Assembly (NCBI GenBank): GCA_965206845.1
Contig: OZ242221.1
Span: 1,344,001 to 1,408,000, forward strand
Direction of reading: 5' to 3'
DNA from: Cenarchaeum sp.
Lineage (GTDB): Archaea > Thermoproteota > Nitrososphaeria > Nitrososphaerales > Nitrosopumilaceae
DNA: 64,000 nucleotides
Shown here one piece after another: positions 775 to 23,689 of this stretch. A program made the position numbers and the translations under genes. Within the stretch, counting starts at the first letter, position 1, and each line of letters starts with the position of its first letter. The notes beneath the pieces were generated by a model, which worked only from the letters and a program-made list of their open reading frames with translations, ran no database searches and was not told the DNA's origin.

Positions 775-925
775 TACACGAACCCTTCGGCCGCCTATGT
801 GTCTCCACAGCCTGGCGCATTCTGGCCGGATCCGAGCGCCTTCATTCCCGGTAAGGGAAACGCTCGCACTGTCTTTCAGACGTTTTGCTCCTTCCGACAG
901 GGGGTGAACTACTTTTCGGACTACA
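1..925 (-). mobile_element. IS481-family insertion sequence (runs off window start); transposase frameshifted
   Basis: Minus-strand end 5'-TGTAGTCCGAAAAGTAGTTCACCCC (925-901) has the TGT terminus typical of IS481. The HTH ORF 774-451 continues in another frame into an rve core (WHTDFK...DDASR...MTDHGSQF...HPQTNGKLER). Confidence 0.88.
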
Positions 926-940
926 GACGCCCATACGACT

Positions 941-956
941 AAGAAAGACTTAAAAG
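941..956 (+). promoter_or_regulatory. BRE/TATA of amoX
   Basis: AAGAAAGAC-TTAAAA about 25 nt upstream of ATG 980 (leaderless archaeal promoter geometry). Confidence 0.6.
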
Positions 957-979
957 GATTCTGGATATTACAAATTCAA

Positions 980-1342
980 ATGACTCTTCCAAAAGGATTT
1001 GGCTCAGGTGGCGCTGGCGGAGCTGGACAAGCAGATGTAGAAAAGATGATCGGCAAGCGTGTCGAAAACATGACTGGTCTGATCACCATCTCATACATTG
1101 CAGCTTGGCTGGCTACCTTTGGCGGTACCGCAGCAGGATACTTCTACTATCCGTGGGCATACCCCACACCAAGCGGTCACTATGCCTTCATTGTCCTAAC
1201 AATAATTGAGGCGATTGGCTATCTGTTCTGCGTTAAAGTAATGCAGGAAGGATCCAACAAGAACAGTAATGGTGTTATAGCGGTAACCCTCGCAGCAACT
1301 GCGGTGGGTACCGTGCTTATCTCACTGTTCGTAGGAAACTAG
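980..1342 (+). CDS. amoX: archaeal ammonia monooxygenase subunit X
   Basis: 120-aa membrane protein (MTLPKGFGSGG...YYPWAYPTPSGHYAF) directly upstream of amoA. Confidence 0.9.
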   Translation: MTLPKGFGSGGAGGAGQADVEKMIGKRVENMTGLITISYIAAWLATFGGTAAGYFYYPWAYPTPSGHYAFIVLTIIEAIGYLFCVKVMQEGSNKNSNGVIAVTLAATAVGTVLISLFVGN

Positions 1343-1389
1343 AGGGCTCAATCTTCTGTTTTTCTCTTTTTCGTGTCACAAGCTAGCTT

Positions 1390-1617
1390 CAGTAATCCCA
1401 GATGTGCCAGATCTAGCACCTGTGAGAGTTTAGATCACCTCCATCATGCCCATGAAGAGTTCAATTTGGCATGGGTCAAACCCTCGTATTCTGTCGTATG
1501 CGTCGTCATTTGTGTCTAAACCTACATGAAATGGCCAAAAATATCTGAGTGGGACCAGCCCCTCACTCAGTCAAATGGTGGCGACTTAACCTCTTACTGG
1601 CACATCTGGGATTACTG
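1390..1617. mobile_element. 228-bp non-autonomous MITE (ISH3-type ends)
   Basis: Perfect 21-bp TIR CAGTAATCCCAGATGTGCCAG (1390-1410 / 1597-1617), flanked by 5-bp direct repeat AGCTT (1385-1389, 1618-1622). No transposase. Confidence 0.88.
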
Positions 1618-1780
1618 AGCTTACATGCTGGGCTTGCTGTGGCCAGAACCGTGCTCCGGCCTGTTCTAGGACGTCTCTGCCCGGCAGAAGACTACCGATC
1701 TGGGGTATGGCGACCCTGCCGTATGGCAACACCTGATGCGCCGAGTCAGGCGTGGATTCCCATGCGACTCTCGCGCAGGC

Positions 1781-1797
1781 GTATAAAATTTTATATA
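1781..1797 (+). promoter_or_regulatory. BRE/TATA of amoA
   Basis: GTATAAAAT-TTTATATA ending 22 nt before ATG 1820. Confidence 0.7.
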
Positions 1798-1819
1798 CCA
1801 ACCGTTCAGTCTACTAGTA

Positions 1820-2470
1820 ATGGTCTGGCTAAGACGTTGTACACACTACTTGTTCATAATAGTAGTTGCAGTAAACTCTACTCTGTTGACGATTAACGCA
1901 GGTGACTACATCTTCTACACTGACTGGGCATGGACTTCGTTTGTAATATTCTCTATATCGCAGACGTTGATGCTCGCTGTTGGTGCTACATACTACCTCA
2001 CATTCACAGGCGTTCCAGGAACAGCTACGTACTACGCTCTGATAATGACGGTATACACGTGGATCGCAAAGGGTGCATGGTTTGCACTGGGTTATCCATA
2101 CGACTTTATCGTCACTCCAGTTTGGCTGCCATCGGCAATGCTGTTGGATTTGGCTTACTGGGCTACGAAGAGAAACAAACACTCGCTGATCCTGTTTGGC
2201 GGGGTACTGGTAGGAATGTCATTGCCCCTGTTCAACATGGTAAACCTACTGACAGTTGCAGACCCACTAGAAACGGCGTTCAAATACCCGAGGCCAACAC
2301 TGCCTCCGTACATGACCCCGATAGAACCCCAGGTGGGTAAGTTCTATAACAGCCCAGTAGCGTTGGGCGCGGGAGCTGGCGCAGTGTTGTCGGTGACGTT
2401 TACGGCGTTGGGTTGTAAGCTAACTACGTGGACGTATAGATGGATGGCCGCATGGTCAAAGTGGGACTAA
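1820..2470 (+). CDS. amoA: archaeal ammonia monooxygenase subunit A
   Basis: MVWLRRCTHYLFIIVVAVNSTLLTINAGDYIFYTDWAWTSF...WMAAWSKWD, canonical 216-aa AOA AmoA. Confidence 0.99.
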   Translation: MVWLRRCTHYLFIIVVAVNSTLLTINAGDYIFYTDWAWTSFVIFSISQTLMLAVGATYYLTFTGVPGTATYYALIMTVYTWIAKGAWFALGYPYDFIVTPVWLPSAMLLDLAYWATKRNKHSLILFGGVLVGMSLPLFNMVNLLTVADPLETAFKYPRPTLPPYMTPIEPQVGKFYNSPVALGAGAGAVLSVTFTALGCKLTTWTYRWMAAWSKWD

Positions 2471-2480
2471 ATCCCCAACC

Positions 2481-2498
2481 TTTTCCTTTTCTATTTTG
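2481..2498 (+). terminator. T-rich archaeal terminator after amoA
   Basis: TTTTCCTTTTCTATTTTG 10 nt after the stop codon. Confidence 0.55.
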
Positions 2499-2675
2499 TA
2501 TCGTCTGAGGCTGTGCCTTGATGCAGCTTTTTGTTTGGATCCGTTCCCGCGCATGACTGCCCCGGGCGTATGATCCGGCCTGGACATCCCAGTTACCCCT
2601 AATCCAAAAAAAGTCAGTTTGGGATCAAGTTTTTTTTACATCCGGGATCATAACAAACTCTGACACTACTCTACA

Positions 2676-3530
2676 TTGACGCAGCAGGTAGGGCAGCTGG
2701 ATTCCCCAAAGCCGTTCGTAAAGTGGGCCGGCGGGAAGAGGCAACTGATCTCCGTAATCAACGCAAACATACCGCTCTCCTTTGGTACGTACTTTGAGCC
2801 CTTTCTGGGCGGCGGGGCGGTTCTGTTTCACCTGCTGTCCGCCAGGCAGTCTGTCGCTTGTCGAGTCTCGGATCTCAACCCGGATCTGGTGCTGGCGTAC
2901 GTGGCCATCCGGGACAGAGTGAATGCAGTAGTCTCTTCACTCAAGCGCCATGCAAAAGGGTACATGTCGGATCCGCGCGCGTACTATTACGGCGTGCGCA
3001 GCTCCGTGCCTGATGGCGGAGTCGAGAAGGCATCCCGCCTCATCTTCCTCAACCGCACCTGCTTTAACGGCCTGTACCGAGTAAACAGCCGTGGCATGTT
3101 CAACGTTCCGCTGGGAAAGTACGTAAACCCCAACATTGTAAACGAGGAGAACCTCCGTGCGGTGAGCAGATCCCTGCAGTCAGAGAGGGTGCAGATCTCC
3201 TGCGGGGACTTTGAGATTGCATGCAGCTCCATGCGACGTGGCGACTTTGTCTACTTTGACCCTCCATACCAGCCAGTCAGCAGGACTGCCAGCTTTACCG
3301 GCTACACCCGCCAAGACTTTGGCGCAACAGATCTCAAGCGCCTAGTCGATCTCTGTCATGCCTTGGACTCCCGGGGATGCCACGTACTACTGTCAAACTC
3401 CAACTTGCAGGAGATTGCAGATCACTTTGACGGGGACTGGGAGGTGACAACAGTCAGCGCCAACCGTTGCATCAACTCATCTGGAGCAGGGAGAGCCGGG
3501 CATACCGAGCTCATGATAAGAAACTATTGA
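2676..3530 (+). CDS. Dam-like (D12 class) DNA N6-adenine methyltransferase
   Basis: KWAGGK, EPFLGGG, FNGLYRVN and YFDPPY motifs. No restriction endonuclease gene alongside. Confidence 0.92.
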   Translation: MTQQVGQLDSPKPFVKWAGGKRQLISVINANIPLSFGTYFEPFLGGGAVLFHLLSARQSVACRVSDLNPDLVLAYVAIRDRVNAVVSSLKRHAKGYMSDPRAYYYGVRSSVPDGGVEKASRLIFLNRTCFNGLYRVNSRGMFNVPLGKYVNPNIVNEENLRAVSRSLQSERVQISCGDFEIACSSMRRGDFVYFDPPYQPVSRTASFTGYTRQDFGATDLKRLVDLCHALDSRGCHVLLSNSNLQEIADHFDGDWEVTTVSANRCINSSGAGRAGHTELMIRNY

Positions 3531-3603
3531 AGCCCCGAACGGGATTTGAACCCGCGGCCTTTACCTTACCAAGGTAACGCTCTACCGGCTGAGCTATCAG
3601 GGC
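3531..3603 (-). tRNA. tRNA-Thr(GGT)
   Basis: GCCCTGA...TTACC-TTGGTAA-GGTAA...GGTTCAAATCC...TCGGGGC cloverleaf. Confidence 0.95.
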
Positions 3604-3709
3604 ACCTCTCTACTTGGACTGTCCAAATCCTTATAATTCTTGATTATTTCCCGGCGCATGCGATCACCCGCACCACGTAATGTGTGAAAACCCGACCGGC
3701 ACCCTAAAT

Positions 3710-4696
3710 CTAGAGGTGCATCCTGACCCTTTCAAGCAGTATGACGGGAATCATTGCAATTATCCCAATCATCATGATATGCGAAAACTCCGGTACTACC
3801 GCGATGCCGCCAAAGCAGGCAGCCTCGTCCTCCAGATTGCCGTTTAGGAACATTGAGCACCCTGCGCCGTCTGTCTGGATGATGATGTCCCCGGTATGTG
3901 TCCTAAGAAGATGGTCCGCGCCGGCATACCTGTTGACTGCATCTTGGTGCGGATGTCCGTACTGGTTGTTCTCGTTTGCCGAGAATATTACGGTTCTTGG
4001 CGTGGTGGCATCTACGAATGCCGGCGTGCTTGCATGCTTTGAGCCATGGTGCGGCGCGTTGAGAATGTCCACATCTAGGACGTCTGCGGCATATCTGTTG
4101 ACAAGCCACGACTCTGTGGTAAAGGTGGCGTCGGCCGTAAACAGGAACTCAATGTCGCCATACTCCAAGAGCATGATCACGGAATTTGAGTTTTCGAGCG
4201 ACGCGTTTCGCCTTTCACTGATCAGTGATTCTGGCGGACTGAGAACCCTGACAGATACCGAATCATCAAGATTTATGGTGTCGCCCGTATGTGCGATGGA
4301 CCTGCCTTCTGCCAGGCTAAGGAATCTTTGATATGTCCGGGTCTCCTTCTCCGTGGGGCCTGTTATGATCCCCTTTACCTCGATCGATCCGTCCTGCAAC
4401 AAAGCGTTGAGTCCCCCTATGTGATCCTGATCCGGATGTGTTGCAACAACTGCGTCTATTGTGCTGATGTCAAATGACTGTAACACCTCCTTGATATTCG
4501 GGTATGCTGATGATAGCCCGCCATCAATGAGCATGGTCTTCTCGTTTGGGAAGATGACAAGTGTCGAGTCACCCTTTGTCTCAAGATCAATGAACACAAC
4601 CGTCAGCCCATCAAAGTCGTATGCGTCATGGTCTGCATATGCAAACGGGGCGGATGCCGCCGGCAATAACAACAACAGAATGTACGTTACCTTCAC
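3710..4696 (-). CDS. secreted ComEC/Rec2-type metallo-beta-lactamase-fold hydrolase with PEF-CTERM-like anchor
   Basis: Signal peptide; GDS, LIDGG, THPDQDHIGG, NSNS, PHHGS and YGHP motifs; C-terminal VPEF + TM + basic tail. Confidence 0.85.
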   Translation of the reverse strand: MKVTYILLLLLPAASAPFAYADHDAYDFDGLTVVFIDLETKGDSTLVIFPNEKTMLIDGGLSSAYPNIKEVLQSFDISTIDAVVATHPDQDHIGGLNALLQDGSIEVKGIITGPTEKETRTYQRFLSLAEGRSIAHTGDTINLDDSVSVRVLSPPESLISERRNASLENSNSVIMLLEYGDIEFLFTADATFTTESWLVNRYAADVLDVDILNAPHHGSKHASTPAFVDATTPRTVIFSANENNQYGHPHQDAVNRYAGADHLLRTHTGDIIIQTDGAGCSMFLNGNLEDEAACFGGIAVVPEFSHIMMIGIIAMIPVILLERVRMHL

Positions 4697-4856
4697 TCAG
4701 TCAAACCAAGCCGCGAGCGGTATTTGAACATGCTTGCACCGGCGATATCTGCTTCCCGTGGCGGAGTGCAACGAGATGGAAGCGAATGAGTGGCCAAGCT
4801 TGCGGCGCATTAAAAAGAGTAGAGAGCTCTGCTGTATGACACCTGCGTAGATTCAG

Positions 4857-4930
4857 TGGACTGGAGGGGATTTGAACCCCTGACCCCCCGCGTGCAAGGC
4901 GGGTATACTACCAGGCTATACTACCAGCCC
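4857..4930 (-). tRNA. tRNA-Ala(TGC)
   Basis: GGGCTGG...CCCGC-CTTGCAC-GCGGG...GGTTCAAATCC...CCAGTCCA. Confidence 0.95.
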
Positions 4931-5164
4931 ACAGGCTTGATGGCAGTGCTAGAGATTTTAACTGTTGCTTGGTATCTGACCGCATCGGCCCGTGGGCAGG
5001 GTTGTCTAAAGAACCGATCCTCCACCAACTGCCTCACCTGCTCTTCCAACTGAACCCAAAACCTCGGGCGGCATGTTTTGGCACCTGTGTCCACGGTAGC
5101 GGACTCTGAGCGATCTGACTAACCGAAGGGAAAGAATTTATTTGAAAAACTGACAATCAGGGTC

Positions 5165-5719
5165 ATGGTTCTGCTCGAGTCTGCAAAGATGCTAAAGAAG
5201 GGGGATGTCGCCCCGAACTTTGATCTGTTTGGAACCGATGGCAGAAGACACTCCGCTGACAGCTATGGGGACTATGAGGGACTGCTGGTGATCTTCATGT
5301 GCAACCACTGCCCGTATGTCAAGGCCAAACTGGGCGCCATCAAGGAGATACACAGCAGGTTCAGGGATCGCGTAGCGATTGTAGGCATCAACAGCAACGA
5401 CTCGACTCGATACCCCGACGACAGCTTTGAGAACATGAAGGCCGTGGCCAAGGAGAAGGGCCTGGAGTTTGACTACCTGGCAGATGAGACTCAGGAGGTG
5501 GCAAGAGAATACGGTGCTGCATGCACGCCGGACCCATTCCTCTTTGACAGGAAGCGGCGGCTTGTATTTCACGGCAGGCTTGATGACGCGCTCAAGCTCG
5601 ATGACACGGCCACGGAGAAGACCACGATGAACAACATAGAAAAGATGCTGGCAGGGCAGGAGATAGAGAAGGACTTTGATCCATCCATCGGATGCTCGAT
5701 CAAGTGGAAGCAGAATTAG
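5165..5719 (+). CDS. AhpC/TSA thioredoxin-family protein
   Basis: FMCNHCPYV, GAACTPDPF and GCSIKW motifs. Confidence 0.9.
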   Translation: MVLLESAKMLKKGDVAPNFDLFGTDGRRHSADSYGDYEGLLVIFMCNHCPYVKAKLGAIKEIHSRFRDRVAIVGINSNDSTRYPDDSFENMKAVAKEKGLEFDYLADETQEVAREYGAACTPDPFLFDRKRRLVFHGRLDDALKLDDTATEKTTMNNIEKMLAGQEIEKDFDPSIGCSIKWKQN

Positions 5720-5750
5720 ACTTAAATGGCTGCGGGCTGCAAAAATTTCA

Positions 5751-5837
5751 GGGCCGGTAGCTCAGCTTGGCTGGAGCGTTCGACTGATAAACCATTTGGA
5801 TATCGAAAGGTCGTGAGTTCGAATCTCACTCGGCCCA
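5751..5837 (+). tRNA. tRNA-Ile(GAT) with 12-nt intron at 37/38 (5790-5801)
   Basis: TTCGA-CTGATA[AACCATTTGGAT]A-TCGAA anticodon arm; standard D and T arms. Confidence 0.92.
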
Positions 5838-5839
5838 TC

Positions 5840-6736: not shown

Positions 6737-6996
6737 ATGTGGTTATGGCTACTGGTATCGTATAAAGAATGACTGCATGCGGTGGATAGAGGTCCGGTAG
6801 CCTGTCCGCAACGCCGGTTCCCATCCGGCTATGCGACAGCGCCGGTTGCACTTCGGGAAGGGGCGAGATCACCTACCGTACTGGCTCTGCCATGGGAACT
6901 TGGTCTTGGCGCATGCGCTGGCGCCAAGATGAACAGGGACTCGGGCCTCGAAATCTCGTAAACTGTTAAATTTTGCGCAGTCGAGGGTACTGTGTT

Positions 6997-7117
6997 GGAG
7001 GAGTAATCAAGCCTGGCCAAAGCAAGCCGTTTGGCTTTTGGACATGCAGGACTTAAGATCAAACAATGGGTGATCCTGTCTCCTAGGAGTTCGTGGGTTC
7101 GAATCCCACCTCCTCCA
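6997..7117 (+). tRNA. tRNA-Leu(TAA) with two introns (D-arm ~7023-7043; 37/38 ~7058-7072)
   Basis: Removing both inserts gives GGAGGAG...ATC...GAT G CAGGA-CTTAAGA-TCCTG, a long variable arm, GTTCGAATCC and CTCCTCCA. Confidence 0.88.
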
Positions 7118-7221
7118 TCCTCGTCACATGCCATACGGAGGCCCACAGGCCGCGCCACAGATCTGCAGATCCTGCCAAACCTTGGTACATTAAAAAAATA
7201 GAACGCAATTTTTTTTTGCAG

Positions 7222-7617: not shown

Positions 7618-7952
7618 ATTACTTTCACTTTACCGTACCATAAAGTATACTGGTATATAAAATTTTAGAGCGATCCGGAGCGCGGATTCCACTTCCACCT
7701 CCCATTCAGGCACAAAGGTACACACCGTGTGAAGTCCCTGCATCCGGTTCGACACGGCCGATGATCCCATGCATCCCCTGACTGCCATGGGTATGCGCGC
7801 AAAACCGGCAGATCTTCAGGCAGATCACGACCGCACAGAGCAGCCGGCGCGCATTAGCTGCACCATCTTTCATTCGGGCATTGGGATATACACCTAGACG
7901 AATCCCTGCGCTCGGTTCTGTGCGGCAGGCGACGCCGGATCAACGGCTGCCG

Positions 7953-9161
7953 GGGGTTGGTGCGTAATTCTCCGAACCGCCTAGACCAGTCCGATACGTT
8001 CAATGATCCGCGATCTCCCGCACGCGGCAATGAGCGAACACAACAGACGGGAAGGATACTGGCAGTACTATGAACTGGCAAAGGAAGTCGAGGCACCTAG
8101 TCTGAAGAGGACGCTGATCGAGATAATCCGGGAGAACCCTTGCCCGCGCCGAGAAAACGGCAACAGGGGCCGTCCCCCGGTTCACTCCAAGGAGAAACTG
8201 GACTTTGCCTGTCTGCTGATGATGGCAGGCAACAACACCTATCGCGGAGTCGAATCGGACCTGCGAGGCATGCGGACACCATGGGACAACGAGCCCGTCC
8301 CGGACCATACCACACTGGTCAGGCACCTCCAGACGATACCGGCAGACTGGCTCGATCTGATCGTGGCCGAGACGGCCCGCCGTTGCATCAAGGAGGCGGA
8401 CGAGGCGACGGGCCCGCTGGGAGCCGACAGCAGCGCGGCGGAGACCACTAGGTACGAATACGTCGAGAGGCCAAGCAGGAAGGAGCGCGACTTCGTCGAG
8501 ACACGCCAAAAGACCTACTGGAAATACCACATAACGGCCATCTTGGGCCTGCAGATCGTGCTGGCGGCGTTCACCACGCCCAGCAACATCAACGACACGA
8601 CCATGCTTCCAGTCATGCTGGCTGAGATCAGGCGTCGCGGGTTTGACTTTGCGGGGAACTTCTTTGACGGGGACAAGGGGTACGACTCTGACTACAACTG
8701 CGAGCTGCTGTTCTGGATGGGCATGATCCCCAACATCAAGCAACGGAAGGATGCCGTCAACCGTGGCAAGTCGCACAGGAGGAAGGCAGCTGGCATGTTC
8801 AGCGATAGCGAGTACAGAAAGAGGGCCCTGATAGAGGGCATCTTCGGGGCCGAGGAGACCCGGCGGCACCAGCTGCACTGCCGGTTCGTCCGGAAGGACA
8901 ACCGGCGCCTGTTCGCCAAGGGAAGGGCGATCGCCTGGAACATCCGGGTCCTCAACCGGTTCGAGTGCGCCAACCGGCTAAACATACCAATACCCTCCTA
9001 CGGTGGCATGGCGCACGTGGAGTGCGCCTGATGATCCGACCCGTCAGTAGCTGATCACGGCGTGCGGGCAACAAAAGCCCGACACGCACCAAAGCACCGC
9101 CGGTGAAGATGCGGTGGGAGACACACATGAGCAGGACGGAGCAGAATTACGCACCAACCCC
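7953..9161 (+). mobile_element. 1209-bp IS5/IS4-type DDE insertion sequence, copy 1
   Basis: 19-bp TIR GGGGTTGGTGCGTAATTCT (7953-7971 / 9143-9161); 9-bp TSD CGGCTGCCG (7944-7952, 9162-9170). Confidence 0.93.
8003..9031 (+). CDS. DDE transposase (DDE_Tnp_1-like)
   Basis: PDHTTL, GADSS, DGDKGYDS and YRKRALIEGIF motifs. Confidence 0.92.
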   Translation: MIRDLPHAAMSEHNRREGYWQYYELAKEVEAPSLKRTLIEIIRENPCPRRENGNRGRPPVHSKEKLDFACLLMMAGNNTYRGVESDLRGMRTPWDNEPVPDHTTLVRHLQTIPADWLDLIVAETARRCIKEADEATGPLGADSSAAETTRYEYVERPSRKERDFVETRQKTYWKYHITAILGLQIVLAAFTTPSNINDTTMLPVMLAEIRRRGFDFAGNFFDGDKGYDSDYNCELLFWMGMIPNIKQRKDAVNRGKSHRRKAAGMFSDSEYRKRALIEGIFGAEETRRHQLHCRFVRKDNRRLFAKGRAIAWNIRVLNRFECANRLNIPIPSYGGMAHVECA

Positions 9162-9206
9162 CGGCTGCCGGATGGATTTAAATAGGATTAGTTCTGTTCC
9201 ATTAGC

Positions 9207-9314
9207 ATGGCAAATCCAGCAGACGGTTGGCCGGTATGGATACCTCTTATTGTGGGATTAGCTCCAGGATTAGTTTACTGGTTCGCTATCACAGCAAGAC
9301 GATCTAGAAGGTAG
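9207..9314 (+). CDS. 35-aa single-TM microprotein MANPADGWPVWIPLIVGLAPGLVYWFAITARRSRR (not in ORF track)
   Basis: TTTAAATA at 9177-9184, ATG 9207, TAG 9312-9314, downstream T-tract; hydrophobic core plus Arg-rich tail. Confidence 0.72.
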   Translation: MANPADGWPVWIPLIVGLAPGLVYWFAITARRSRR

Positions 9315-9451
9315 AAACGCACGGTTTCCAATCTTTTTCTTCTTTATCCAAATTGAACCCCGTCGGGCATCACATTCCACATTCAGGTGTGTTCTGGTGC
9401 TTGATGTGGCTTTACTGCAAGACAAATTAATCACCTCTATACAAGCACTGT

Positions 9452-10492: not shown

Positions 10493-10521
10493 GGCGTGCA
10501 GCTTGGTTTATCTTTTCGATC

Positions 10522-11395: not shown

Positions 11396-11398
11396 CGG

Positions 11399-15872: not shown

Positions 15873-16162
15873 CTTAAAAACCAACGCCGCATAGGGGAGG
15901 TGCCCCAAGAGCACCCGCGCAGACGGATCAGGCAGAGATGATCGTGTCGATTCCTGTGACTCCTGATTCACCCAGGCGCGGCACATCGGGGCAACCCCGG
16001 TTTGAGAACGCAGGGAGGCATATGGCTACAACACCAATGATACTGTGCGAGTCAGAACCGGGGGACACTAAAATGGGATCGTATCTTCTAGGCACCCTGA
16101 TCGGTGCGAGCATGGCTGACTCCCACATTAAATAAGGGGGGGGGGCACCTGCCATGTAGCGC

Positions 16163-16591: not shown

Positions 16592-16637
16592 CCTGGACCT
16601 GCTACATAGCGTGTCCCTCACGGTTCGGGGTAATGCC

Positions 16638-17846
16638 GAGGTTGGTGCGTAATTCTCCGAACCGCCTAGACCCGTCCGATACGTTCAATGATCCGCGATC
16701 TCCCGCACGCGGCAATGAGCGAACACAACAGACGGGAAGGATACTGACAGTATTATGAGCTGGCAAAGGAAGTCGAGGCGCCTAGTCTGAAGAGGGAGCT
16801 GATCGAGATAATCCGGGAGAACTCTTGCCCGCGCCGAGAAAACGGCAACAGGGGTCGTCCCCCGGTTCACTCCAAGGAGAAACTGGACTTTGCCTGTCTG
16901 CTGATGATGGCAGGCAACAACACCTATCGCGGAGTCGAATCGGACCTGCGAGGCATGCGGACACCATGGGACAACGAGCCCGTCCCGGACCATACCACAC
17001 TGGTCAGGCACCTCCAGACGATACCGGCAGACTGGCTCGATCTGATCGTGGCCGAGACGGCCCGCCGTTGCATCAAGGAGGCGGACGAGGCGACGGGCCC
17101 GCTGGGAGCCGACAGCAGCGCGGCGGAGACCACTAGGTACGAATACGTCGAGAGGCCGAACAGGGAGGAGCGCGACTTCGTCGAGACGCGCCAAAAGACC
17201 TACTGGAAATACCACATAACGGCCATCTTGGGCCTGCAGATCGTGCTGGCGGCGTTCACCAAGCCCGGCAACATCAACGACACGACCATGCTTCCAGTCA
17301 TGCTGGCTGAGATCAGGCGCCGCGGGTTTGACTTTGCGGGGAACTTCTTTGACGGGGACAAGGGGTACGACTCTGACTACAACTGCGAGCTGCTGTTCTG
17401 GATGGGCATGATCCCCAACATCAGGCAACGGAAGGATGCCGTCAACCGTGGCAAGCCACACAGGAGGAAGGCGGCCGGCATGTTCAGCGATAGCGAGTAC
17501 AGAAAGAGGGCCCTGATAGAGGGCATCTTCGGGGCCGAGGAGACCCGGCGGCACCAGCTGCACTGCCGGTTCGTCCGGAAGGACAACCGGCGCCTGTTCG
17601 CCAAGGGAAGGGCGATCGCCTGGAACATCCGGGTCCTCAACCGGTTCGAGTGCGCCAACCGGCTAAACATACCAATACCTTCCTACGGTGGCGTGGCGCA
17701 CGCGGAGTGCGCCTGATGATCCGACCCGTCAGTAGCTGATCACGGCGTGCGGGCAACAAAAGCCTGACACGCACCAAAGCACCGCCGGTGAAAACGCGGC
17801 GGGAGACGCACATAAGCAGGACGGAGCAGAATTACGCACCAACCTC
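16638..17846 (+). mobile_element. 1209-bp IS5/IS4-type insertion sequence, copy 2
   Basis: TIR GAGGTTGGTGCGTAATTCT (16638-16656 / 17828-17846); TSD GGTAATGCC (16629-16637, 17847-17855); near-identical to copy 1. Confidence 0.93.
16688..17716 (+). pseudogene. transposase with nonsense codon 20 (TGG>TGA at 16745-16747)
   Basis: Aligns ungapped to 8003-9031, where the same codon is TGG. Confidence 0.85.
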
Positions 17847-17891
17847 GGTAATGCCAAAAGAACCTTATACTAGAAAAATTGTAGGAGATGT

Positions 17892-18131
17892 ATGGCGACA
17901 GCTTATGTCCTGATAAACTGTGAACTCGGTTCCGAGGAGGCAATCATACAACAGCTCAAGGGACTTGAAGGCGTAAGAGAGGTTCATGGAACCTTTGGCG
18001 CCTACGATATCCTTGCAAAGATCGAATCCGACACGGTAGAGAAGCTCAGGGAGACCATTACGTGGAAGATAAGAAAGATAGAGAAGATCCGATCCACGCT
18101 GACTCTGATGGGAATCGAGGGCCAAAACTAA
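17892..18131 (+). CDS. Lrp/AsnC ligand-binding-domain protein
   Basis: AYVLINC...HGTFGAYDILAKI...IRSTLTL. Confidence 0.9.
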   Translation: MATAYVLINCELGSEEAIIQQLKGLEGVREVHGTFGAYDILAKIESDTVEKLRETITWKIRKIEKIRSTLTLMGIEGQN

Positions 18132-18145
18132 CCATTTTTTTTACT

Positions 18146-18733
18146 ATGATCCTGCATTTTGTCTTTGTAGTGCGAGAGGAGGATCTGGACGACCGCAGGG
18201 GCGAGTTTGAGTATGTCCAGCAGATGGGGCGCTTCTTCCAGGTGTGGATACGGGCAAGATTCTCCTTGGATGTAGAGGTCAGATGCGATCAGATGATCAC
18301 TCATGCCCGGAGCATGCTGCAGCGGTTGGACACGCACACGTTGATAGATGATCACCGCAGTCGTGGATCCGGCACCTTTCACTTTTACCTATGCCACTTT
18401 CGTCCCACGTGGACCGACTGCACCTGCGAGGGGTATCATTCTGAGAACTTTGGAATGGTCTTTTGGCGGCGTCCCAAGGCGCAGGACGATTGGCTATTCC
18501 TGGCAGAGAAGAACTGCACCACCGTGTCCCACGAGCTTGCGCACGAGCTTCTCCGGCAGGCAGGCTACAAGAGGTACGGCACGGACGTGCACGACATATG
18601 GACCAGGCACCTCTTTGACGGGCTCGAGTTTGAGCAGTACGGCAAGGACTTTGAAAGGACCGATGTGGAACCGTGGTTTCTGGCCATCGACCTGTCGTCT
18701 CTTGAGTACGGCAGGCGGGTCAGCACTTTGTAA
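18146..18733 (+). CDS. hypothetical protein with HExxH zincin-like motif
   Basis: VSHELAHELL and DCTCEGYH motifs. Confidence 0.7.
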   Translation: MILHFVFVVREEDLDDRRGEFEYVQQMGRFFQVWIRARFSLDVEVRCDQMITHARSMLQRLDTHTLIDDHRSRGSGTFHFYLCHFRPTWTDCTCEGYHSENFGMVFWRRPKAQDDWLFLAEKNCTTVSHELAHELLRQAGYKRYGTDVHDIWTRHLFDGLEFEQYGKDFERTDVEPWFLAIDLSSLEYGRRVSTL

Positions 18734-19352
18734 CTGTGTAGATGCTGTTCTCAAAATTGGTAGTCTTGAACTCGATCTTGTTCTCGGGATCCTTTGATCT
18801 TGCCGTGTTCAGGCTGGCAAGCTCTGCTAGGGCATCGCTTCTGAATCCCACAGACGAACCGTAGATCGCCTCGGCGAGCTGCGTGCCGTGCTCGCCCCCC
18901 TTGATGTCGTCTACCATGTCGTAAAATTTTGTGGTCTCCCTCCGGTTGACAGGGTTTCCTGTTGCCTTGTTGACCGCCACGGCAGTGTACATGCCGTGCT
19001 GCTTTACGGCCACTTGGACCATGTTGCTCTTGTTTGTTCTGCCAGGAATGGTCTCATCCACCAGAATCTCACACTTGTGGAACATGCTGGATACGTACGC
19101 GTAGAACCGGTACTGGGCAAACCTGCCCTCGTCATCCTCGTCGCAGTCCACAAAGACCTTGTGCAGCATGGTCAGTGCGTTGTCGTTCATGCTCTGCAGG
19201 CGATCAATGATGCGCCCCCTCTCCAAAAGCTCCGAACCGCACTCCTTGGCAACCAGCTCTAGGATAAAGTCTGGCAGGTTGTAGTTCTTAAGCGACGTCA
19301 CATGCGCGCCGGCCTGGGACAGACCGAACTTTGGAAATCCCTTGTTTACCAT
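18720..19352 (-). CDS. hypothetical protein, possibly a degenerate restriction-endonuclease-like fold
   Basis: 210-aa ORF; IPGRTNKS..VQVAVK...AVAVNK resembles the Mrr-type core without clear catalytic acids. Confidence 0.6.
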   Translation of the reverse strand: MVNKGFPKFGLSQAGAHVTSLKNYNLPDFILELVAKECGSELLERGRIIDRLQSMNDNALTMLHKVFVDCDEDDEGRFAQYRFYAYVSSMFHKCEILVDETIPGRTNKSNMVQVAVKQHGMYTAVAVNKATGNPVNRRETTKFYDMVDDIKGGEHGTQLAEAIYGSSVGFRSDALAELASLNTARSKDPENKIEFKTTNFENSIYTVTKC

Positions 19353-19434
19353 TTCCTGTATTTTGACTCCTTGCAGTGTTCATACATGTCCAATAGTCAT
19401 ACGTCGGTTATGCATTTAATTGTTGAGATTCTTG

Positions 19435-20860
19435 TAGTTAGTTTCACAACCTAGGTCTTAATGGCACCTCCTTGATCCAAGCGCGGGCGCTTGCGACAAC
19501 TCTACGTTCATGCCCCTGCGATCGCCTCCCGTGCCACCGCCAACAGCCTGTTGTACATGTTGATCCTTATTGCGATCTCCTGGACGATGTTTTCCATCTT
19601 TACCGCGTTCACGGAACCGCCGAACATCCGCTTGAGCGACGAGAACACGATCTCCACCAGCCACCGCCGGCCGTAGCCGACCCGCCTCTTCCAGTCCTTC
19701 TGGTTCTGGACGCGCTCGCACTCGTCCAGCGCGGCGAGTCTTTTCGGGCCGGGATCGCTACCGCACAGCTGATCTTGGGCGGCCAGGCCGCGCGTCCTGC
19801 CCACCCCGCCGGCTCTGCTGTTGGCGTTCTTCTTTATCCTGATGAGCGGCACTATTCCCAGATTCTTGCAGTATTCAAATATCTGCCTCGTATCGTATCC
19901 GGCATCTGCCCGCAGCTCTATCACAGACTGCCCTCCGGCATGCATTGCAGGGCAGAAAGGCAGCATGCCGTACCGTTCTGCGGATCCCGCGGTGTCTGTG
20001 GCCCTCGTGCCTCCCGCTGCGGATCTTTCGGCGCGACTCCCGGCCTCCGCGGCATCTGTACCCTGTGCCTTGGCTGCCCCCTTCGCCAGGACCCCCGCCC
20101 TGAGGCTCTCCGAATCCAGGCCGAGCGCCTCCAGCGAACCGTCCACCAGATCCTTGAACTGGGACGAGTCGCCCTTCCGCTCGTCCGTTACGCGGAACGC
20201 CAGGATCTCCCGGGTCTCTTGGTTTATCATGGCGCTCAGCTTGATGAACCCGAGCGCCTTCCTGTGCTTGTGGTGTATCCAGTCGCTTCGCGTGGCCGGT
20301 GCCAGCCCGGTGGCGTCCGGTATCAGGCAGAGAACGTCGTTGCCGTTCCTGACCGTGGTTATGTTGTCTTCCTGCCGTATCTCCATGGCATTTATTCTCC
20401 GCCACAGGGTGACATGGTCAGGGGCATCCTCCTCGCCTAGGGCCGATTCGGCCATTCCCTGGCACATGCGGTACGGCAGGGGGCCGTGAATGGCCCGTAT
20501 TCCCGCGATAGACATTATGACGGTGTCGGGGTAACTGTAGGGGCGCCCGTTCTTGTTCATGTTCATGCCCTCAAGCTCCCTGTCCGAGCTGGGATCCTTC
20601 GTCAGATGTAGCAGCTTTCCCATCTCCACGTACCTGGCGTCGTTCTGGGTGTGGGTTATCTTCAGTCGCGATTTCTGTTTGATCGGGCCTGTCCCGGTTT
20701 TGTCCATGGATGTGACACCGTTGATCTGATCCTAGTACTTTTCGGATTAAAACAGTCAACCATCAGCTTGAATTCTGTTGGCCTCTGGGAGTCTGGCATG
20801 CGGGATAGCCTGCTTGAGGCGGTGATGCCTTGGTAGAAGACAATGTTGTGAAACTAACTA
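19435..20860 (-). mobile_element. 1426-bp IS5-family insertion sequence
   Basis: Perfect 16-bp TIR TAGTTAGTTTCACAAC (19435-19450 / 20845-20860); TSD GATTCTTG (19427-19434, 20861-20868). Confidence 0.92.
19508..20707 (-). CDS. IS5-family DDE transposase
   Basis: GRPYSYPD, PDHVTLWRR, DATG, ADAGYD and YGRRWLVEIVFS motifs. Confidence 0.92.
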   Translation of the reverse strand: MDKTGTGPIKQKSRLKITHTQNDARYVEMGKLLHLTKDPSSDRELEGMNMNKNGRPYSYPDTVIMSIAGIRAIHGPLPYRMCQGMAESALGEEDAPDHVTLWRRINAMEIRQEDNITTVRNGNDVLCLIPDATGLAPATRSDWIHHKHRKALGFIKLSAMINQETREILAFRVTDERKGDSSQFKDLVDGSLEALGLDSESLRAGVLAKGAAKAQGTDAAEAGSRAERSAAGGTRATDTAGSAERYGMLPFCPAMHAGGQSVIELRADAGYDTRQIFEYCKNLGIVPLIRIKKNANSRAGGVGRTRGLAAQDQLCGSDPGPKRLAALDECERVQNQKDWKRRVGYGRRWLVEIVFSSLKRMFGGSVNAVKMENIVQEIAIRINMYNRLLAVAREAIAGA

Positions 20861-20869
20861 GATTCTTGG

Positions 20870-21863
20870 GTACAAACTCACGCCCCATCGCCATTCGGGA
20901 GCGGGAAATGCGTATTTTCCGGAGGTTTTTCGTATCTGGCCAAGTATTGCATGCAATCTCGCACCTCAGCTGGAGTGGATCTCTGTTTTTAGGATCGGTT
21001 TTTGCAACATTTTCTGCAGTCTTTGTCCTCATTATCTGTTTGCCACCACTAGGGCCTTCTTGCCAAACGACGTGCCCGATATGGCCGGAAAGTCCGGCCC
21101 GGTGACATGGCCGCAGTCGGCACAGGCGTACTCCCATCCAATGTGCGCCACCGTCCGGATGTTGATGCGGGGGCCGTCAAAGTCATTTACCAGCCTGCAC
21201 CGGCACCGGCCCCGCTTGGTGTGGCGCCCCCCGCAGTTGGCGCACCTCGTAAAGACGTGCCAGACCTTCCTGACTGGCCTGTTTGAATGGCTGCATCCCT
21301 TGTGTCCTGCGGGCGGACCGGTCTTTTTGGACGACCCCGCCCCTTCCTCCGTCGCGTCTCCCGCTTCTTGCGCCATGTCCTCGCTCACCCGGAATCTCTT
21401 CTTGGTGTACTCGGTCTTTCCGGACAGGTTTTGGTGCTCGTAGCGCAGCCTTAGCGCCCTTGCCTCCGCCTCCAGCTCCTCCACCCGCGTCTTGTACCTC
21501 TCCACCAGGGCGGACTGGTCGGGGTCAGGCCAGCTGAAGCCCGGCGCCATCTCGTCCCTGCATCTCGGCGGCATGCTCCATCTTCATGGTGGTCACGGCA
21601 TCCAGCAGTATGCGGTTTGATTCGGCCAGGGTGTCGTTGGCATGGTGCAGGCGGCATATCTCCTCCCGATACGCGGCAAGCTGCGTTCTCATGACGAACC
21701 GCCCCCGTGGCCCGGTGCCTGACCCTCAGACGGGCTTTCCCTTGGCGCTATGACGACAGCCATGTGGGTGCGGGCGATCTGCCGTTATAGATCTGTTTTG
21801 GTCATCCTGCGCCTGTGGAGCTTGGTCAGGGTAGAGTCATTTCAGATGGACCTGAGGATGTAC
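20870..21863 (-). mobile_element. internally deleted IS66-like relic
   Basis: ORF 21574-21032 has coiled coil, GPPAGHKG, CxxCG and CxxCGH like the IS66 TnpC N-terminus, but no DDE domain. Imperfect ends GTACAAACTCA (20870-20880) / TGAGGATGTAC (21853-21863). Confidence 0.65.
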
Positions 21864-21876
21864 GCGGCACGCTCTG

Positions 21877-23601
21877 CAGTTAACCCAAAAGTTAGGTTAA
21901 CCTAATGCCTGCAAATCAAGCAATGCCCGACAATCCCCCGTATTTTGGTAAAAACCACGTTCAACTAACATGGCAGACGATCCAGAACACCGTCATCTGT
22001 AACGGTAATGCCGACGCGTACGGAATCAAAATCCGTACCGTGCATCCATGCCATGTTTGGAAAAACAAGAGACGCTCCACGCACGCTAAATTCGTGCCTG
22101 AACCAGAAAATTTCCCCAGACGGCGAGAACGGATACCGACATTCCAAACGCGGTGGCACGGGCCTTGCAGCATCATGTTGCCCGAAAGGGATTGCGGCCA
22201 GGCGCGTCACGCGCGGGATCCGCTGCTCAGTACAGAGGCAGATAGTCTGGATCCGGCGATTCTCCGGGATCGGGCCCGTGCCGGGCAAGTACAAATGTCA
22301 GGTTGACCTTCAGCTGCGTCTGCGTCATGCGTCGCTTGCCTGCCCCGGCCTGTTTGGACGTGACTGACAGCAGCATGTTTATCGCCACCCATGCATTGAA
22401 CATCACCACCGAATACAGGAAGCAGAATATGCGGGCCGCGGTGTGCTTGCTGCACGTCTTTGCCCTCATGTTCTCTATCATGCGGTAGCCCGTCTCTATG
22501 CCCCACCTTTTGGAATACAGTTCGGCATCTGCCTGCGGCATGTTGGTGGCAAACCCGATGAACTTTTCCTTCGGGGGCAGGTCTTCTGACTCTCCGCCCT
22601 TGCGGCTTTTCTTCTTTCTCTCGGTTATAATCATGGTGTATTTTACCGAGACGCCGTCGGCGTTAGTGATGTACATCTCGGAGACTGCAGGGCGAATGCC
22701 TGCGGCAAACTCGTCGATGGCGCTTACCACGGGATCCGTGTTCTTGCACGGCACGATGTAGCCTGCATCCAGCTCGTCAAACATGGCAAAGACGTCTGCA
22801 GAAAAGAATTCCCGGTCAAGCAGGACTGCCCTGACGTTGGCGCCTGCATGGCGACACTCCTCGACCAGACTGCGCACGGATCTTGGAACAAAACCAAACG
22901 CCCCCATGTGAATGGCTCCCAGCACCAGGCGCGGCCCGCCCTCGACGCACTGCGCGGTGGCGTACCGCTCGAATGTTCCCGTCCCGTTCTTTCTTTTTGA
23001 GCGTGTCAGGTCGCTGTCGCGCTTTTTGTCCCACCGCGGAATCAGGTGCATGTCAATGGCAATTACCATCCCGTCGCCGGACAGCTGTCCCAGACCACGT
23101 GCCACATCCATCTGCAGGCGCACCGATCTGGCAAAACCGTCCATCAGATCGTTCTTGTCCGTCTTGGAAAGAACGCCATTGAACCATTCGTCAGTCGGGG
23201 AGGCGCGGTGGTTGGTCTGCGCCCCGACGATCCCCTCGATCCGGCCCCGCACGGCAGAGGCCACCGAGCCGACCGAGGAGCCAAGCGTCACTGCCCACAG
23301 CATGCCACGGTTAAAGTCGTCCAGCCCGTATGTCGCGTTTGCCTTGTCAGATACCTTGATGCATGAGAGGATGTTCTCCTCTGCTGCCATTCGCGATGCT
23401 TCGTCGCGCATTTTGGGGTTGTTCATCAGATCCCGGCCCATGATGTTTGGCATGATGACTTGTTGTAAAAGATGTCTTTATGGTACGGTGCCATGCATTG
23501 CGCGAGATTGTGTAAAAAATTGCGCATGTGCAGGGTGCCGACGAGCCGCAAAAGGATTGGTCAATCAATGCATTAGAGCAGCCTAACTTTTGGGTTAACT
23601 G
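21877..23601 (-). mobile_element. 1725-bp ISH3-family insertion sequence
   Basis: 20-bp TIR CAGTTAACCCAAAAGTTAGG (21877-21896 / 23582-23601); 5-bp TSD CTCTG (21872-21876, 23602-23606). Confidence 0.92.
22227..23453 (-). CDS. ISH3-family transposase
   Basis: IAIDMHLIP, LLDREFFS, FATN and YSKRWGIETGYR motifs. Confidence 0.92.
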   Translation of the reverse strand: MPNIMGRDLMNNPKMRDEASRMAAEENILSCIKVSDKANATYGLDDFNRGMLWAVTLGSSVGSVASAVRGRIEGIVGAQTNHRASPTDEWFNGVLSKTDKNDLMDGFARSVRLQMDVARGLGQLSGDGMVIAIDMHLIPRWDKKRDSDLTRSKRKNGTGTFERYATAQCVEGGPRLVLGAIHMGAFGFVPRSVRSLVEECRHAGANVRAVLLDREFFSADVFAMFDELDAGYIVPCKNTDPVVSAIDEFAAGIRPAVSEMYITNADGVSVKYTMIITERKKKSRKGGESEDLPPKEKFIGFATNMPQADAELYSKRWGIETGYRMIENMRAKTCSKHTAARIFCFLYSVVMFNAWVAINMLLSVTSKQAGAGKRRMTQTQLKVNLTFVLARHGPDPGESPDPDYLPLY

Positions 23602-23689
23602 CTCTGTGAGCCATATTAATAAGATAGTTTCTGTTAGATACTTATGAGCGAGATGATACCTACTGGCACTTGATCCGATCTATTCCAAT

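Follow-up and report, generated by a model that had tools for sequence, protein, structure and literature searches.

Ty3 of budding yeast is an LTR retrotransposon whose integrase is of the retroviral type, and TFIIIB directs its integration to the start sites of RNA polymerase III. For Ty3, targeting by protein-protein contact is established, and the complex involved holds TBP and the TFB/TFIIB-like protein Brf1. Tf1 of fission yeast, P elements and others favour the region upstream of genes with a TBP-dependent polymerase, and these preferences are regional, over tens to hundreds of base pairs, or depend on a factor such as Sap1. Sequence-defined targets of insertion sequences (IS) include TA for IS630 and short A/T-rich words. 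To our knowledge, the in vivo target choice of archaeal transposons is almost unstudied.

The sections of Guerillot et al. (2014, PMC3942029) drawn on here describe the TnGBS conjugative elements, ISLre2 and the ISKra4 group, which have bacterial Mutator-like DDE transposases and insert 15-17 bp upstream of the -35 box of sigma-A promoters. In those sections, the trait of TnGBS and ISLre2 belongs to two related transposase lineages with a common sequence signature, and among archaeal elements only ISH6, which duplicates an A/T-rich motif, is mentioned as one that might favour promoters. A literature search, with most subscription journals outside it, found no report of IS landing at an archaeal promoter border, and the portions of PMC6563490 and PMC13343696 searched for promoter or TATA hold no such report for archaea.

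The window analysed here, a stretch of 64,000 nucleotides, belongs to the 1.65-Mb genome (57% GC, AmoC encoded) of a sponge-associated ammonia-oxidising archaeon. As far as those sections of PMC3942029 go, the IS of this genome resemble TnGBS and ISLre2 in being DDE transposons with a fixed spacing to a core promoter element downstream of them and in leaving promoter and gene intact; insertion in either orientation, given for TnGBS/ISLre2 elements with near-perfect inverted repeats, is counted as a further likeness. They differ in that at least eight families are involved, with transposases of the DDE_Tnp_1 and rve types, and in that the landmark is the archaeal BRE/TATA element at -30 from start codons, not a sigma-factor promoter. 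The families that follow the rule have Pfam matches to DDE_Tnp_1, DDE_Tnp_1_5, DUF772 or rve, with no Mutator-type (p-MULT 3/4) domain among them. By analogy with Ty3, the near-fixed position relative to the promoter, here in register to the TATA sequence, may offer a safe haven beside genes, but the elements are DNA transposons and lie upstream of BRE/TATA, whereas Ty3 lies at the start site. Unlike the preferences of Tf1 and P elements, the register is exact to one base.

Promoter model and insertions in the window

A BRE/TATA matrix was built from the genome's own upstream regions (n = 899). An unseeded motif search settled on a G/C-to-A/T boundary motif, and seeded refinement was used instead. 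The promoter consensus is cAAnnTTTAWATA. In most of the 899 upstream regions its core begins 30 nt ahead of the start codon, which implies that most genes are leaderless. The insertion set comprises 31 insertions, genome-wide, with a verified target-site duplication (TSD). The main count takes in 25 insertions of the families labelled A, B, C, D, E, F, L and T in this analysis, and leaves out eight full-length copies that lack a TSD. An insertion was taken to fit when, with the IS removed, an outward-facing matrix match of at least 7.5 bits had its core starting 5-9 nt past the TSD (spacing d). Both the 5-9 nt window and the 7.5-bit threshold were set after the data had been seen, for which a hold-out and an A/T test are a partial remedy. 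The features of the window are as follows.

1..928, minus strand: right part of an IS481-like element, family F (Pfam rve, rve_3); end from the 13-nt TSD
929..941, unstranded: right copy of the family F TSD, 13 nt, GCCCATACGACTA; left copy just outside the window
949..956, plus strand: BRE/TATA core CTTAAAAG, 11.5 bits, d = 7 beyond the TSD; predicted promoter of ORF 980-1342
1390..1617, unstranded: MITE, family M1, from family O, with ends CAGTAATCCCAGATGTGC and a 5-nt TSD, AGCTT
7953..9161, plus strand: IS copy 1, family A, 1209 bp (Pfam DDE_Tnp_1), placed by TSD and ends
9177..9184, plus strand: TATA core TTTAAATA, 9.5 bits, d = 6 beyond the TSD; predicted promoter of ORF 9207-9314
16638..17846, plus strand: IS copy 2, family A, with a 9-nt TSD, GGTAATGCC, at 16629-16637 and 17847-17855
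17862..17869, plus strand: BRE/TATA core ACCTTATA, 8.1 bits, d = 6 beyond the TSD; predicted promoter of 17892-18131
19413..19420, minus strand: TATA core ATTAAATG, 12.0 bits, d = 7 beyond the TSD; presumed promoter of 18720-19352 (minus)
19433..20861, minus strand: IS, family D, 1429 bp (Pfam DDE_Tnp_1 and DDE_Tnp_1_5); ends and TSD fixed via the second copy
21877..23601, minus strand: ISH3-like IS, family E, 1725 bp, with a 5-nt TSD, CTCTG, at 21872-21876 and 23602-23606
23616..23623, plus strand: TATA core TTAATAAG, 9.2 bits, d = 9 beyond the TSD

The whole family F element occupies genome positions 1343795-1344928, its minus-strand transposase gene running past the window start, and a second copy is 95.8% identical. 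Members of the IS481 family have an rve-type DDE transposase, terminal inverted repeats starting TGT and a long TSD. The label of this element follows from its rve-type Pfam match, its ends TGTGGG/TGTAG and its 13-nt TSD. The inverted repeats place the right end at 925 and the TSD places it at 928. ORF 980-1342, whose ATG lies 31 nt after the core start, encodes a membrane-like protein of 120 aa. G001, a genome of the same genus, matches the region 942-1372 at 79% identity.

Copy 1 of family A encodes a DDE transposase of 342 aa (8003-9031) and is flanked by the 9-nt TSD CGGCTGCCG at 7944-7952 and 9162-9170, with about 326 nt of non-coding DNA on the side away from the promoter. The ATG of ORF 9207-9314 (35 aa) lies 30 nt after the core start, and 9171-9299 is 79% identical in G001. 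This small ORF was itself spotted through the IS-junction rule. The spacer around copy 2 is short (37 + 36 nt); the genes that flank it are adjacent without the IS in G001, and its junctions are seen in contigs of three other samples. Its box precedes the gene for a 79-aa AsnC-type protein (17892-18131, Pfam AsnC_trans_reg), again with the ATG 30 nt after the core start.

The family D transposase (399 aa, 19508-20707, minus strand) belongs to an element whose second copy is 99.2% identical, and the 5-nt TSD ATTCT lies at 19428-19432 and 20862-20866. Gene 18720-19352 (minus) has its ATG at 19352, and 68 nt separate this from the core start. An RNA contig spans 18617-19383 and ends there; it is the sole RNA contig end that fits a box and is weak evidence. 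In the RNA contigs of X18, uncovered stretches are uninformative and depth was unused.

The ISH3 family has an ISH3-type DDE transposase, a length of about 1.4-1.7 kb and a 4-5-nt TSD. The family E element, with a transposase of 408 aa (22227-23453, minus strand), is called ISH3-like by a weak DDE_Tnp_1 match (39 bits), its length of 1725 bp and a 5-nt TSD in both copies. Its insertion in the window obeys the rule and is polymorphic in natural populations: contigs that skip 21871-23600 reach full single-copy depth in run X7 and about half in X1, and the insertion is present in X10. A search of contigs from other genomes with this transposase found no related loci. Downstream of the core at 23616-23623 lie a 9-codon ORF (23645) and then a branched-chain amino-acid permease gene (23690-24592, Pfam BPD_transp_2). 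From the core to the permease start at 23690 there are 74 nt, and the ATG at canonical distance opens the 9-codon frame only.

The positions of five element ends and boxes that the earlier note had read by eye agree with the present ones within 0-3 nt. Copy 1 (end 9161, box 9177, 15 nt between), copy 2 (end 17846, TTATA 17865, 18 nt) and the ISH3-like element (end 23601, TTAATA 23616, 14 nt) stand as given. For the family D element, there called IS5, the minus-strand TTAAAT at 19419-19414 holds, but the TSD moves the left end from 19435 to 19433 and the spacing from 15 to 13 nt. For the IS481-like element, TTAAAA at 950 and the inverted-repeat end at 925 were recovered, but the TSD-based end is 928. 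All five by-eye boxes match the genome's own matrix at 8.1-12.0 bits, and four have an ATG 28-31 nt after the core start, one of these being the 9-codon frame of the ISH3-like case. The MITE at 1390, already set apart as an exception, has its nearest outward box, of 7.7 bits, at d = 18.

Register between IS ends and TATA cores

The register, its one-sidedness, its family specificity and the excess over uniform landing are demonstrated by the genome-wide count. From the window alone, it had been proposed that unrelated IS land at a short fixed distance upstream of TATA boxes. Across the genome, a BRE/TATA core starts 5-9 nt beyond the TSD in 18 of 25 insertions from eight families, always on one side only, where about one is expected. 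The comparison with an intergenic null that the earlier note had called for separates the two clearly: with uniform landing in each insertion's own non-coding stretch, 0.95-1.08 cases are expected (Poisson-binomial p ~4e-22 to 4e-21), an excess of about 18-fold with a fixed matrix and a fixed window. A null that confines landing to the 40 nt upstream of the promoter still gives p 1e-11, and a hold-out that drops the five original cases gives 13/20 against 0.76 expected (p 2e-15). A matrix-free test finds at least 7/8 A/T at 6-13 nt past the TSD in 16/25 insertions, compared with 8.6% of random intergenic positions (p 9e-12), and in 12/20 with the same five removed (p 1e-8); on the other side of the 25 insertions there is no A/T enrichment. 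Among the TSD-less full-length copies of A, B and F, 2/6 show, at one end, a box in the expected register that scores 7.5 bits or more. A further null, of "viable positions" with promoter zones excluded, was dropped, as quasi-palindromic TATA boxes score on both strands and many observed sites were flagged non-viable.

The spacing is specific to the family (permutation p 1e-5), with d of 6, 6, 6 and 6 in A; 6, 5, 5, 6 and 6 in B; 6 and 6 in C; 7 and 7 in D; 9 and 9 in E; 7 in F; 8 in L; and 7 in T. Four family B copies that are 99-99.5% alike lie at d = 5, 5, 6 and 6. The non-coding stretches around the insertions are mostly 100-400+ nt long, and within them the edge of the TSD is constant to one base per family. 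The flanks have no common sequence, barring a single 15-nt match and two sites that are neighbours. Across families A-T, the TSDs are mutually unrelated and often G/C-rich, with neither a conserved TSD nor a two-sided flank consensus; what is conserved is found to one side of the TSD, beyond it. Measured from its centre, the TSD of DDE elements with 5-9-nt duplications is 9.5-11.5 bp from the core start, about one helical turn; across families, the near edge (5-9) is equally or more constant than the centre (9.5-15).

No insertion falls inside a called gene (0/25), though genes make up 80% of the genome, and in the eight families the interval from box to gene is free of insertions. At 13/18 targets the core start is followed after 24-44 nt by an ORF of 25 aa or longer, one of the 13 being judged spurious, and at one further target a tRNA gene starts 33 nt after the core start. 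Boxes with a start codon at canonical distance are somewhat more frequent at targets (13/18) than among all intergenic boxes (43%, p 0.01); with the spurious ORF dropped, p is roughly estimated at ~0.03. The products include L7Ae, LSm, RNA polymerase subunit L (RpoL), CarA, HMG-CoA synthase and an Fe-S assembly protein. Their consensus position and the genes that follow mark the boxes beside IS as canonical predicted promoters of real genes. Stronger promoters are not preferred, with a median of 11.0 bits at targets and 10.0 at other promoters of at least 7.5 bits (p 0.21).

The seven misfits among the 25 are A 99132 (box at d = 0), B 181554, B 1529265, C 1440333 (a good promoter at d = 19), L 182872, L 713940 (6.9 bits at d = 3) and T 1241424. 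Family O, which is related to family E, follows the rule in 0/6 cases together with its MITE (M1), and family G in 0/2; survival alone therefore does not force the pattern.

Possible guides of the insertions

It is very probable that insertion is biased toward the promoter, whatever the guide. For the more specific reading, in which the core promoter's upstream border is the target of IS from several unrelated families and the TBP/TFB-bound promoter is the guide, the balance is about even. Of the staggered cuts, the one closer to the promoter would be made 5-9 bp upstream of where the 8-bp TATA core begins, at the BRE or barely outside it, so that the IS would come to lie beside an intact unit of BRE, TATA and leaderless gene. 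The guide would be the promoter in its cellular state, with TBP and TFB bound to it and bending it: the bound proteins would shield the DNA that they cover and offer the adjoining, distorted DNA as a favoured target, and the transpososome would dock as near as its own geometry permits, giving each family its own spacing. The outcome would be a safe landing place, in which host gene and element both survive. Counting against this reading, the disregard of promoters by family O and its MITE is unexpected under a purely host-imposed hot spot. The seven misfits, the lack of any preference for stronger promoters and the results from G085 and G088 weigh on the same side.

The same observations can be read without a host protein. 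Transposases may read bare DNA; in a genome of 57% GC, the TATA box is the one 8-mer that is deformable and strongly rich in A/T. The transpososome would contact or bend a target arm roughly a helical turn away from the cut-site centre, and selection would remove insertions on the gene side. This bare-DNA reading is unlikely, though by no means negligible. The distance from TSD centre to core start agrees with it, as do the choice of promoters that are not the strongest and the IS1595-type TnpB cassettes, which duplicate A/T-rich 8-mers and are found near boxes without a set distance; the failure of O and M1 would be natural if each transposase has its own preference, and IS231A and IS903 prefer targets with A/T-rich or bent flanks. 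However, the same one-sided preference would have to be present in every one of eight families whose transposases, of DDE_Tnp_1 types and rve types, are unrelated. Two-sided target patterns are what symmetric transpososomes usually yield, the near edge of the TSD is at least about as constant as its centre, and boxes at canonical distance from a start codon are somewhat over-represented. An origin in random insertion, followed by purifying selection or differential retention that spares positions adjoining promoters in a compact genome, is improbable. Selection, or else targeting, must remove insertions from genes; the empty interval between box and gene and several short spacers, such as that around copy 2, also suit it, and since every insertion seen is a survivor, selective loss between TATA and gene surely adds to the one-sidedness. 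But the expected even spread over tolerated non-coding DNA is not found: most insertions had ample free non-coding DNA, yet the TSD edge is fixed to one base in each family. A position beside the BRE also severs the promoter from all upstream regulatory sites, so this border is not obviously the safest place. As the earlier note had suggested, selection alone does not account for the pattern, given this spacing, the survival of O and M1 copies elsewhere and the conformity of very young insertions, namely the near-identical B copies and the polymorphic E copy. That some box would lie near any IS end, loose TATA-like words being frequent in intergenic DNA, has almost no probability left. At least 6/8 A/T is indeed found in the tested window, on one side, at 24% of random intergenic positions, and the box definitions of the earlier note differed from case to case; the matrix count with its fixed window, the A/T test and the hold-out nevertheless all go against a by-eye artefact, as does the canonical distance of the boxes from start codons, and this explanation is refuted.

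A wider form of the TBP/TFB reading is tentative and may well fail. In it, DNA transposons in general would use TBP and TFB on BRE/TATA, the pre-initiation platform of archaea, as a landing pad, and unrelated transpososomes would dock against this platform so that the closest strand transfer came at the upstream edge of the BRE. This would be a safe-haven strategy, possibly widespread in archaea, parallel to Ty3 and TFIIIB in eukaryotes and to TnGBS at bacterial sigma-A promoters. The archaeal transcription machinery is ancestral to the eukaryotic one. If IS of many families do aim at the BRE border, archaeal transposons would have a simple, host-linked target rule, and there would be a testable link between TBP/TFB and transposition that bears on the age of the Ty3-type strategy. 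The rule would also explain how housekeeping genes work in IS-laden symbiont genomes; an IS sits right beside the promoter in the case of L7Ae, LSm, RpoL, carA and a tRNA. IS junctions would then be base-precise core-promoter markers in uncultured archaea and an aid to the annotation of promoters and small genes.

Other genomes and other elements

Gene order is kept in G001, but its intergenic DNA is not alignable, and no empty sites were recoverable there at base level; its IS481-like copies, 66-85% alike, are too diverged for setting ends. The register was not reproduced in two other genomes, G085 and G088. G085 (34% GC) has 19 copies, 99.9% alike, of a 997-bp IS with 8-9-nt TSDs. At one IS end, boxes lie at d = 0 in 6/19 copies against 0.5 expected, a modest excess at 0-1 nt, and at the other end there is a modest excess at 2-4 nt, both in an A/T-rich background. 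In G088 (47% GC), a 1340-bp IS is present in 14 copies, its 3-nt TSD lying within A-T-rich pentamers, and by eye these copies show no fixed promoter distance; this IS family is sequence-targeted. The G088 IS and the IS1595-type TnpB cassettes are thus like elements with sequence-defined targets, and families A-T are unlike them. Near the TnpB cassettes, a box of at least 6.3 bits lies between -10 and +13 in 9/13 cases and at 5-9 in 1/13.

Possible further insertion sites of families D and E appear in other samples, with a consensus agreement of 0.58-0.59, and were excluded from use. In two families whose ends are unverified, boxes likewise lie in a fixed register to the IS end: 11-13 nt in 3/3 cases for family N, with scores of 11.9-12.4 bits, and 15-16 nt in 2/2 for family H.

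Insertions in the window and a promoter model

The earlier note had proposed, from five insertions in the window, that different IS elements land a short distance upstream of TATA boxes. Its placing of the IS ends and of the TATA-like boxes is right to within 0-3 nt. The family letters are our own labels.

7953-9161, family A, copy 1, 9-nt TSD
16638-17846, family A, copy 2, 9-nt TSD
19433-20861, family D (the "IS5" of the earlier note), 5-nt TSD ATTCT
21877-23601, family E, ISH3-like, 5-nt TSD CTCTG
ending at 928, family F, IS481-like, end set by a 13-nt TSD

The window is G000:C1:1344001-1408000, and the genome around it is a single contig of 1.65 Mb with 57% GC that encodes AmoC. A simple hexamer-based caller of our own was used to define 1516 genes, which cover 80% of the genome. 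The A/T content is maximal 32-22 nt upstream of start codons, and a BRE/TATA matrix, generated by seeded refinement on 899 upstream regions of this genome, has the consensus cAAnnTTTAWATA. In these regions the 8-nt TATA core begins mostly 30 nt ahead of the start codon, and therefore most genes are leaderless. With the IS removed, the five insertions have an outward-facing core at 6, 6, 7, 9 and 7 nt past the TSD, with matrix scores of 8.1-12.0 bits. The MITE at 1390-1617, already noted as an exception, remains one, given that the matrix finds no comparable box beside it.

The family E insertion is polymorphic in nature. Window positions 21871-23600 are skipped by some contigs and present in another sample's contigs (X10). 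In the contigs that skip it the element is exactly absent, with 6 shared letters at the joint, and their depth amounts to full single-copy coverage in sample X7 (63.2) and to about half in X1 (235 of ~450-495). Between the TATA core and a permease gene (GTG start at 23690) there is a 9-codon ORF, at window 23645-23674, which begins 29 nt past the core. It may encode a leader peptide; alternatively, the permease gene may have been assigned a wrong start.

The register across the genome

Repeat families were found by self-BLAST, and Pfam searches on the longest frames were used to tell transposases from ordinary paralogues; Band 7, alcohol dehydrogenase, PhaC, sodium:solute symporter, AmoC and periplasmic binding protein repeats were set aside as paralogues. 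The ends of all full-length copies were inspected, and a copy was kept only if its TSD could be verified, which resulted in a catalogue of 31 insertions. Two copies of family G were added afterwards; the TnpB cassettes with IS1595-type ends, 13 in number, form a set of their own. The main count leaves out eight full-length TSD-less copies (two of A, three of B, and one each of F, O and M1), families H, K, N, P, Q, M and M2, for which the TSD is unverified, and family V, the ends of which could not be set.

Insertions kept out of full-length copies, and spacing from TSD to TATA core where the register is found
A: 5 of 7; 6, 6, 6, 6 nt
B: 7 of 10 (one TSD with one mismatch); 6, 5, 5, 6, 6 nt
C: 3 of 3; 6, 6 nt
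D: 2 of 2; 7, 7 nt
E: 2 of 2; 9, 9 nt
F: 1 of 2; 7 nt
L: 3 of 3; 8 nt
T: 2 of 2; 7 nt
O: 2 of 3
M1 (MITE derived from O): 4 of 5

Among the 25 insertions in families A, B, C, D, E, F, L and T, 18 have an outward-facing core of at least 7.5 bits at 5-9 nt past the TSD, on one side only. The null was generated by placing the TSD at each position of the insertion's own non-coding, non-IS stretch, to a maximum of 400 nt per side, and it predicts 0.95-1.08 such insertions (Poisson-binomial p ~4e-22 to 4e-21), so the proposed pattern holds genome-wide. The 5-9 nt window and the 7.5-bit threshold were chosen after the data had been seen. Therefore, the test was repeated without the original five cases, with 13 of 20 seen and 0.76 expected (p 2e-15). 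A matrix-free version, which asks for at least 7 of 8 A/T letters at 6-13 nt past the TSD on either side, finds 16 of 25 as compared to 8.6% of random intergenic positions (p 9e-12), or 12 of 20 in the hold-out (p 1e-8). Even an extreme null that allows landing only within 40 nt upstream of a promoter gives p 1e-11.

The spacing depends on the family (permutation p 1e-5, with groups set post hoc). The predicted promoter adjoins one or the other IS end in A and E, and in B it mostly keeps to a single end (4 of 5). The two C copies agree with each other in this respect, as do the two D copies. All these counts are too low for an orientation rule to be claimed. At none of the sites does a box point only towards the insertion; that is, no IS lies between a box and its gene. 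The misses are varied. They include an A copy with a box at d=0 (99132), where d is the distance from TSD to core, B and L copies within one IS cluster (181554 and 182872), a B copy with no box within 60 nt (1529265), a C copy with a good promoter at d=19 (1440333), an L copy with 6.9 bits at d=3 (713940) and a T copy that adjoins the 3' end of a gene (1241424). Of the six TSD-less A, B and F copies, two show a box where the register predicts it, at one end and with 7.5 bits or more. Measured from the IS end, a fixed register is found in families N (3 of 3, 11-13 nt) and H (2 of 2, 15-16 nt), and none in K, P, M and M2.

Genes behind the boxes

An ORF of at least 25 aa begins 24-44 nt past the core start for 13 of the 18 boxes, most commonly at 30-31 nt; one of these 13, a 31-aa ORF adjoining D, was judged spurious. 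Behind that D box the real gene has its start 68 nt from the core; between box and ATG, at 19383, an RNA contig comes to an end. A canonical start codon is commoner at the targeted boxes than at intergenic boxes generally (13 of 18 versus 43%, p 0.01). By Pfam, the products encoded behind the boxes include L7Ae, LSm, RNA polymerase subunit L, CarA, HMG-CoA synthase, an Fe-S assembly protein, an SSB-like OB protein, an AsnC-type protein, a binding-protein fusion and a permease. Apart from the promoter motif, a single 15-nt match and two neighbouring sites, the flanks have no sequence in common.

The same-genus genome G001 has the two genes around A copy 2 adjacent, without the IS, and the promoter-gene unit behind F is 79% conserved there. 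Behind A copy 1, a 35-aa hydrophobic ORF (window 9207-9314) begins exactly 30 nt past the consensus TTTAAATA. Given its 79% nucleotide identity in G001, this ORF probably encodes a genuine small membrane protein, one that the gene caller overlooked.

A tRNA gene (genome 551619-551713; locus L031 2919-3013) lies 33 nt past another of the 18 TATA cores, one with a family B IS at the BRE border. ARAGORN reads a 4-letter anticodon, so this gene probably contains an intron. The adjoining IS holds an additional insert of ~140 bp.

Targeting, selection and related elements

Insertions that hit a gene, or that fall between a TATA box and its gene, are surely lost to selection. Random landing filtered by such selection does not explain the precision of the pattern, given that the spacers are 100-400+ nt long and yet the spacing is family-specific and precise to one base; this supports the earlier suggestion that selection alone is not responsible. 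The BRE border is also not obviously the safest spot, because an insertion there severs the promoter from everything upstream. Young copies follow the rule, with four B copies that are 99-99.5% alike at 5, 5, 6 and 6 nt and the polymorphic E copy at 9 nt, and elements that ignore it persist at other places (O and its MITE, 0 of 6; G, 0 of 2). For the TnpB cassettes the duplicated target is an A/T-rich 8-mer, and boxes occur nearby at scattered distances: 9 of 13 have one that scores 6.3 bits or more within -10 to +13, and 1 of 13 falls at 5-9. Therefore, the behaviour depends on the element.

As for how the register demonstrated here arises, the promoter, probably bound and bent by TBP/TFB, would be a preferred landing place along its upstream edge, where each transpososome would dock as near to it as its own geometry permits. 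The main rival is that the bare, deformable TATA sequence is recognised, at roughly one turn of the helix from the middle of the cut site. The excess of canonical start codons at the targets and a one-sided rule common to eight unrelated transposase families argue weakly for the functional promoter. The dependence on family and the lack of preference for stronger promoters among the targets count weakly against a hot spot imposed purely by the host.

The rule is not universal for all IS families, as follows from two other genomes. In G085 (same order, 3.4 Mb, 34% GC), the 19 copies (L049-L067) of a 997-bp IS are 99.9-100% identical and each has a perfect TSD of 8-9 nt, the mark of a very recent burst; their excess of boxes at 0-4 nt is only modest. 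In G088 (47% GC), 14 IS copies with a 3-nt TSD belong to a sequence-targeted family. One known system for comparison is Ty3/TFIIIB. No report of such a promoter register in archaea was found in the literature searched, and term searches for "promoter" and "TATA" in PMC6563490 and PMC13343696 found neither. The closest prokaryotic case, described in PMC3942029, is that of TnGBS, ISLre2 and ISKra4 elements, which land 15-17 bp ahead of the -35 box in sigma-A promoters via Mutator-like transposases; on archaea, the passages considered note only the duplication of an A/T-rich motif by ISH6.

Several other repeats were found. The two family G copies (genome 1326770-1328268 and 1542241-1543739, outside the window; locus L007) encode an IS110-type transposase (DEDD_Tnp_IS110 and Transposase_20). 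Their ends are inverted repeats (GGCTGTGTCCTAC...) that resemble the termini of families B and H, both IS5-type, with an 8-nt TSD on either side (TGTGTTTG; AACCTTAC). IS110 elements are not known to have such ends, which makes this arrangement unusual. The MITE family M2, with ends TATAGCGCCGA and probably a TA TSD, has five copies of ~202 bp (e.g. 543416-543617) and derives from a ~1.5-kb element (genome 236050-237563) whose 368-aa protein has no Pfam match. One TnpB cassette (genome 870565-872715; 8-nt TSD TCATGAAA) carries a nested family A copy without TSD at 870719-871926. Within the window, 48698-54468 consists of ~3-kb tandem repeats, 71-91% alike, of periplasmic-binding-protein genes (ANF_receptor/Peripla_BP_6), with more copies elsewhere in the genome. 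Two inverted copies of an amoC-like gene segment, 97% identical, flank the window region, at genome 1342758-1343385, just before the window, and at window 62620-63251.
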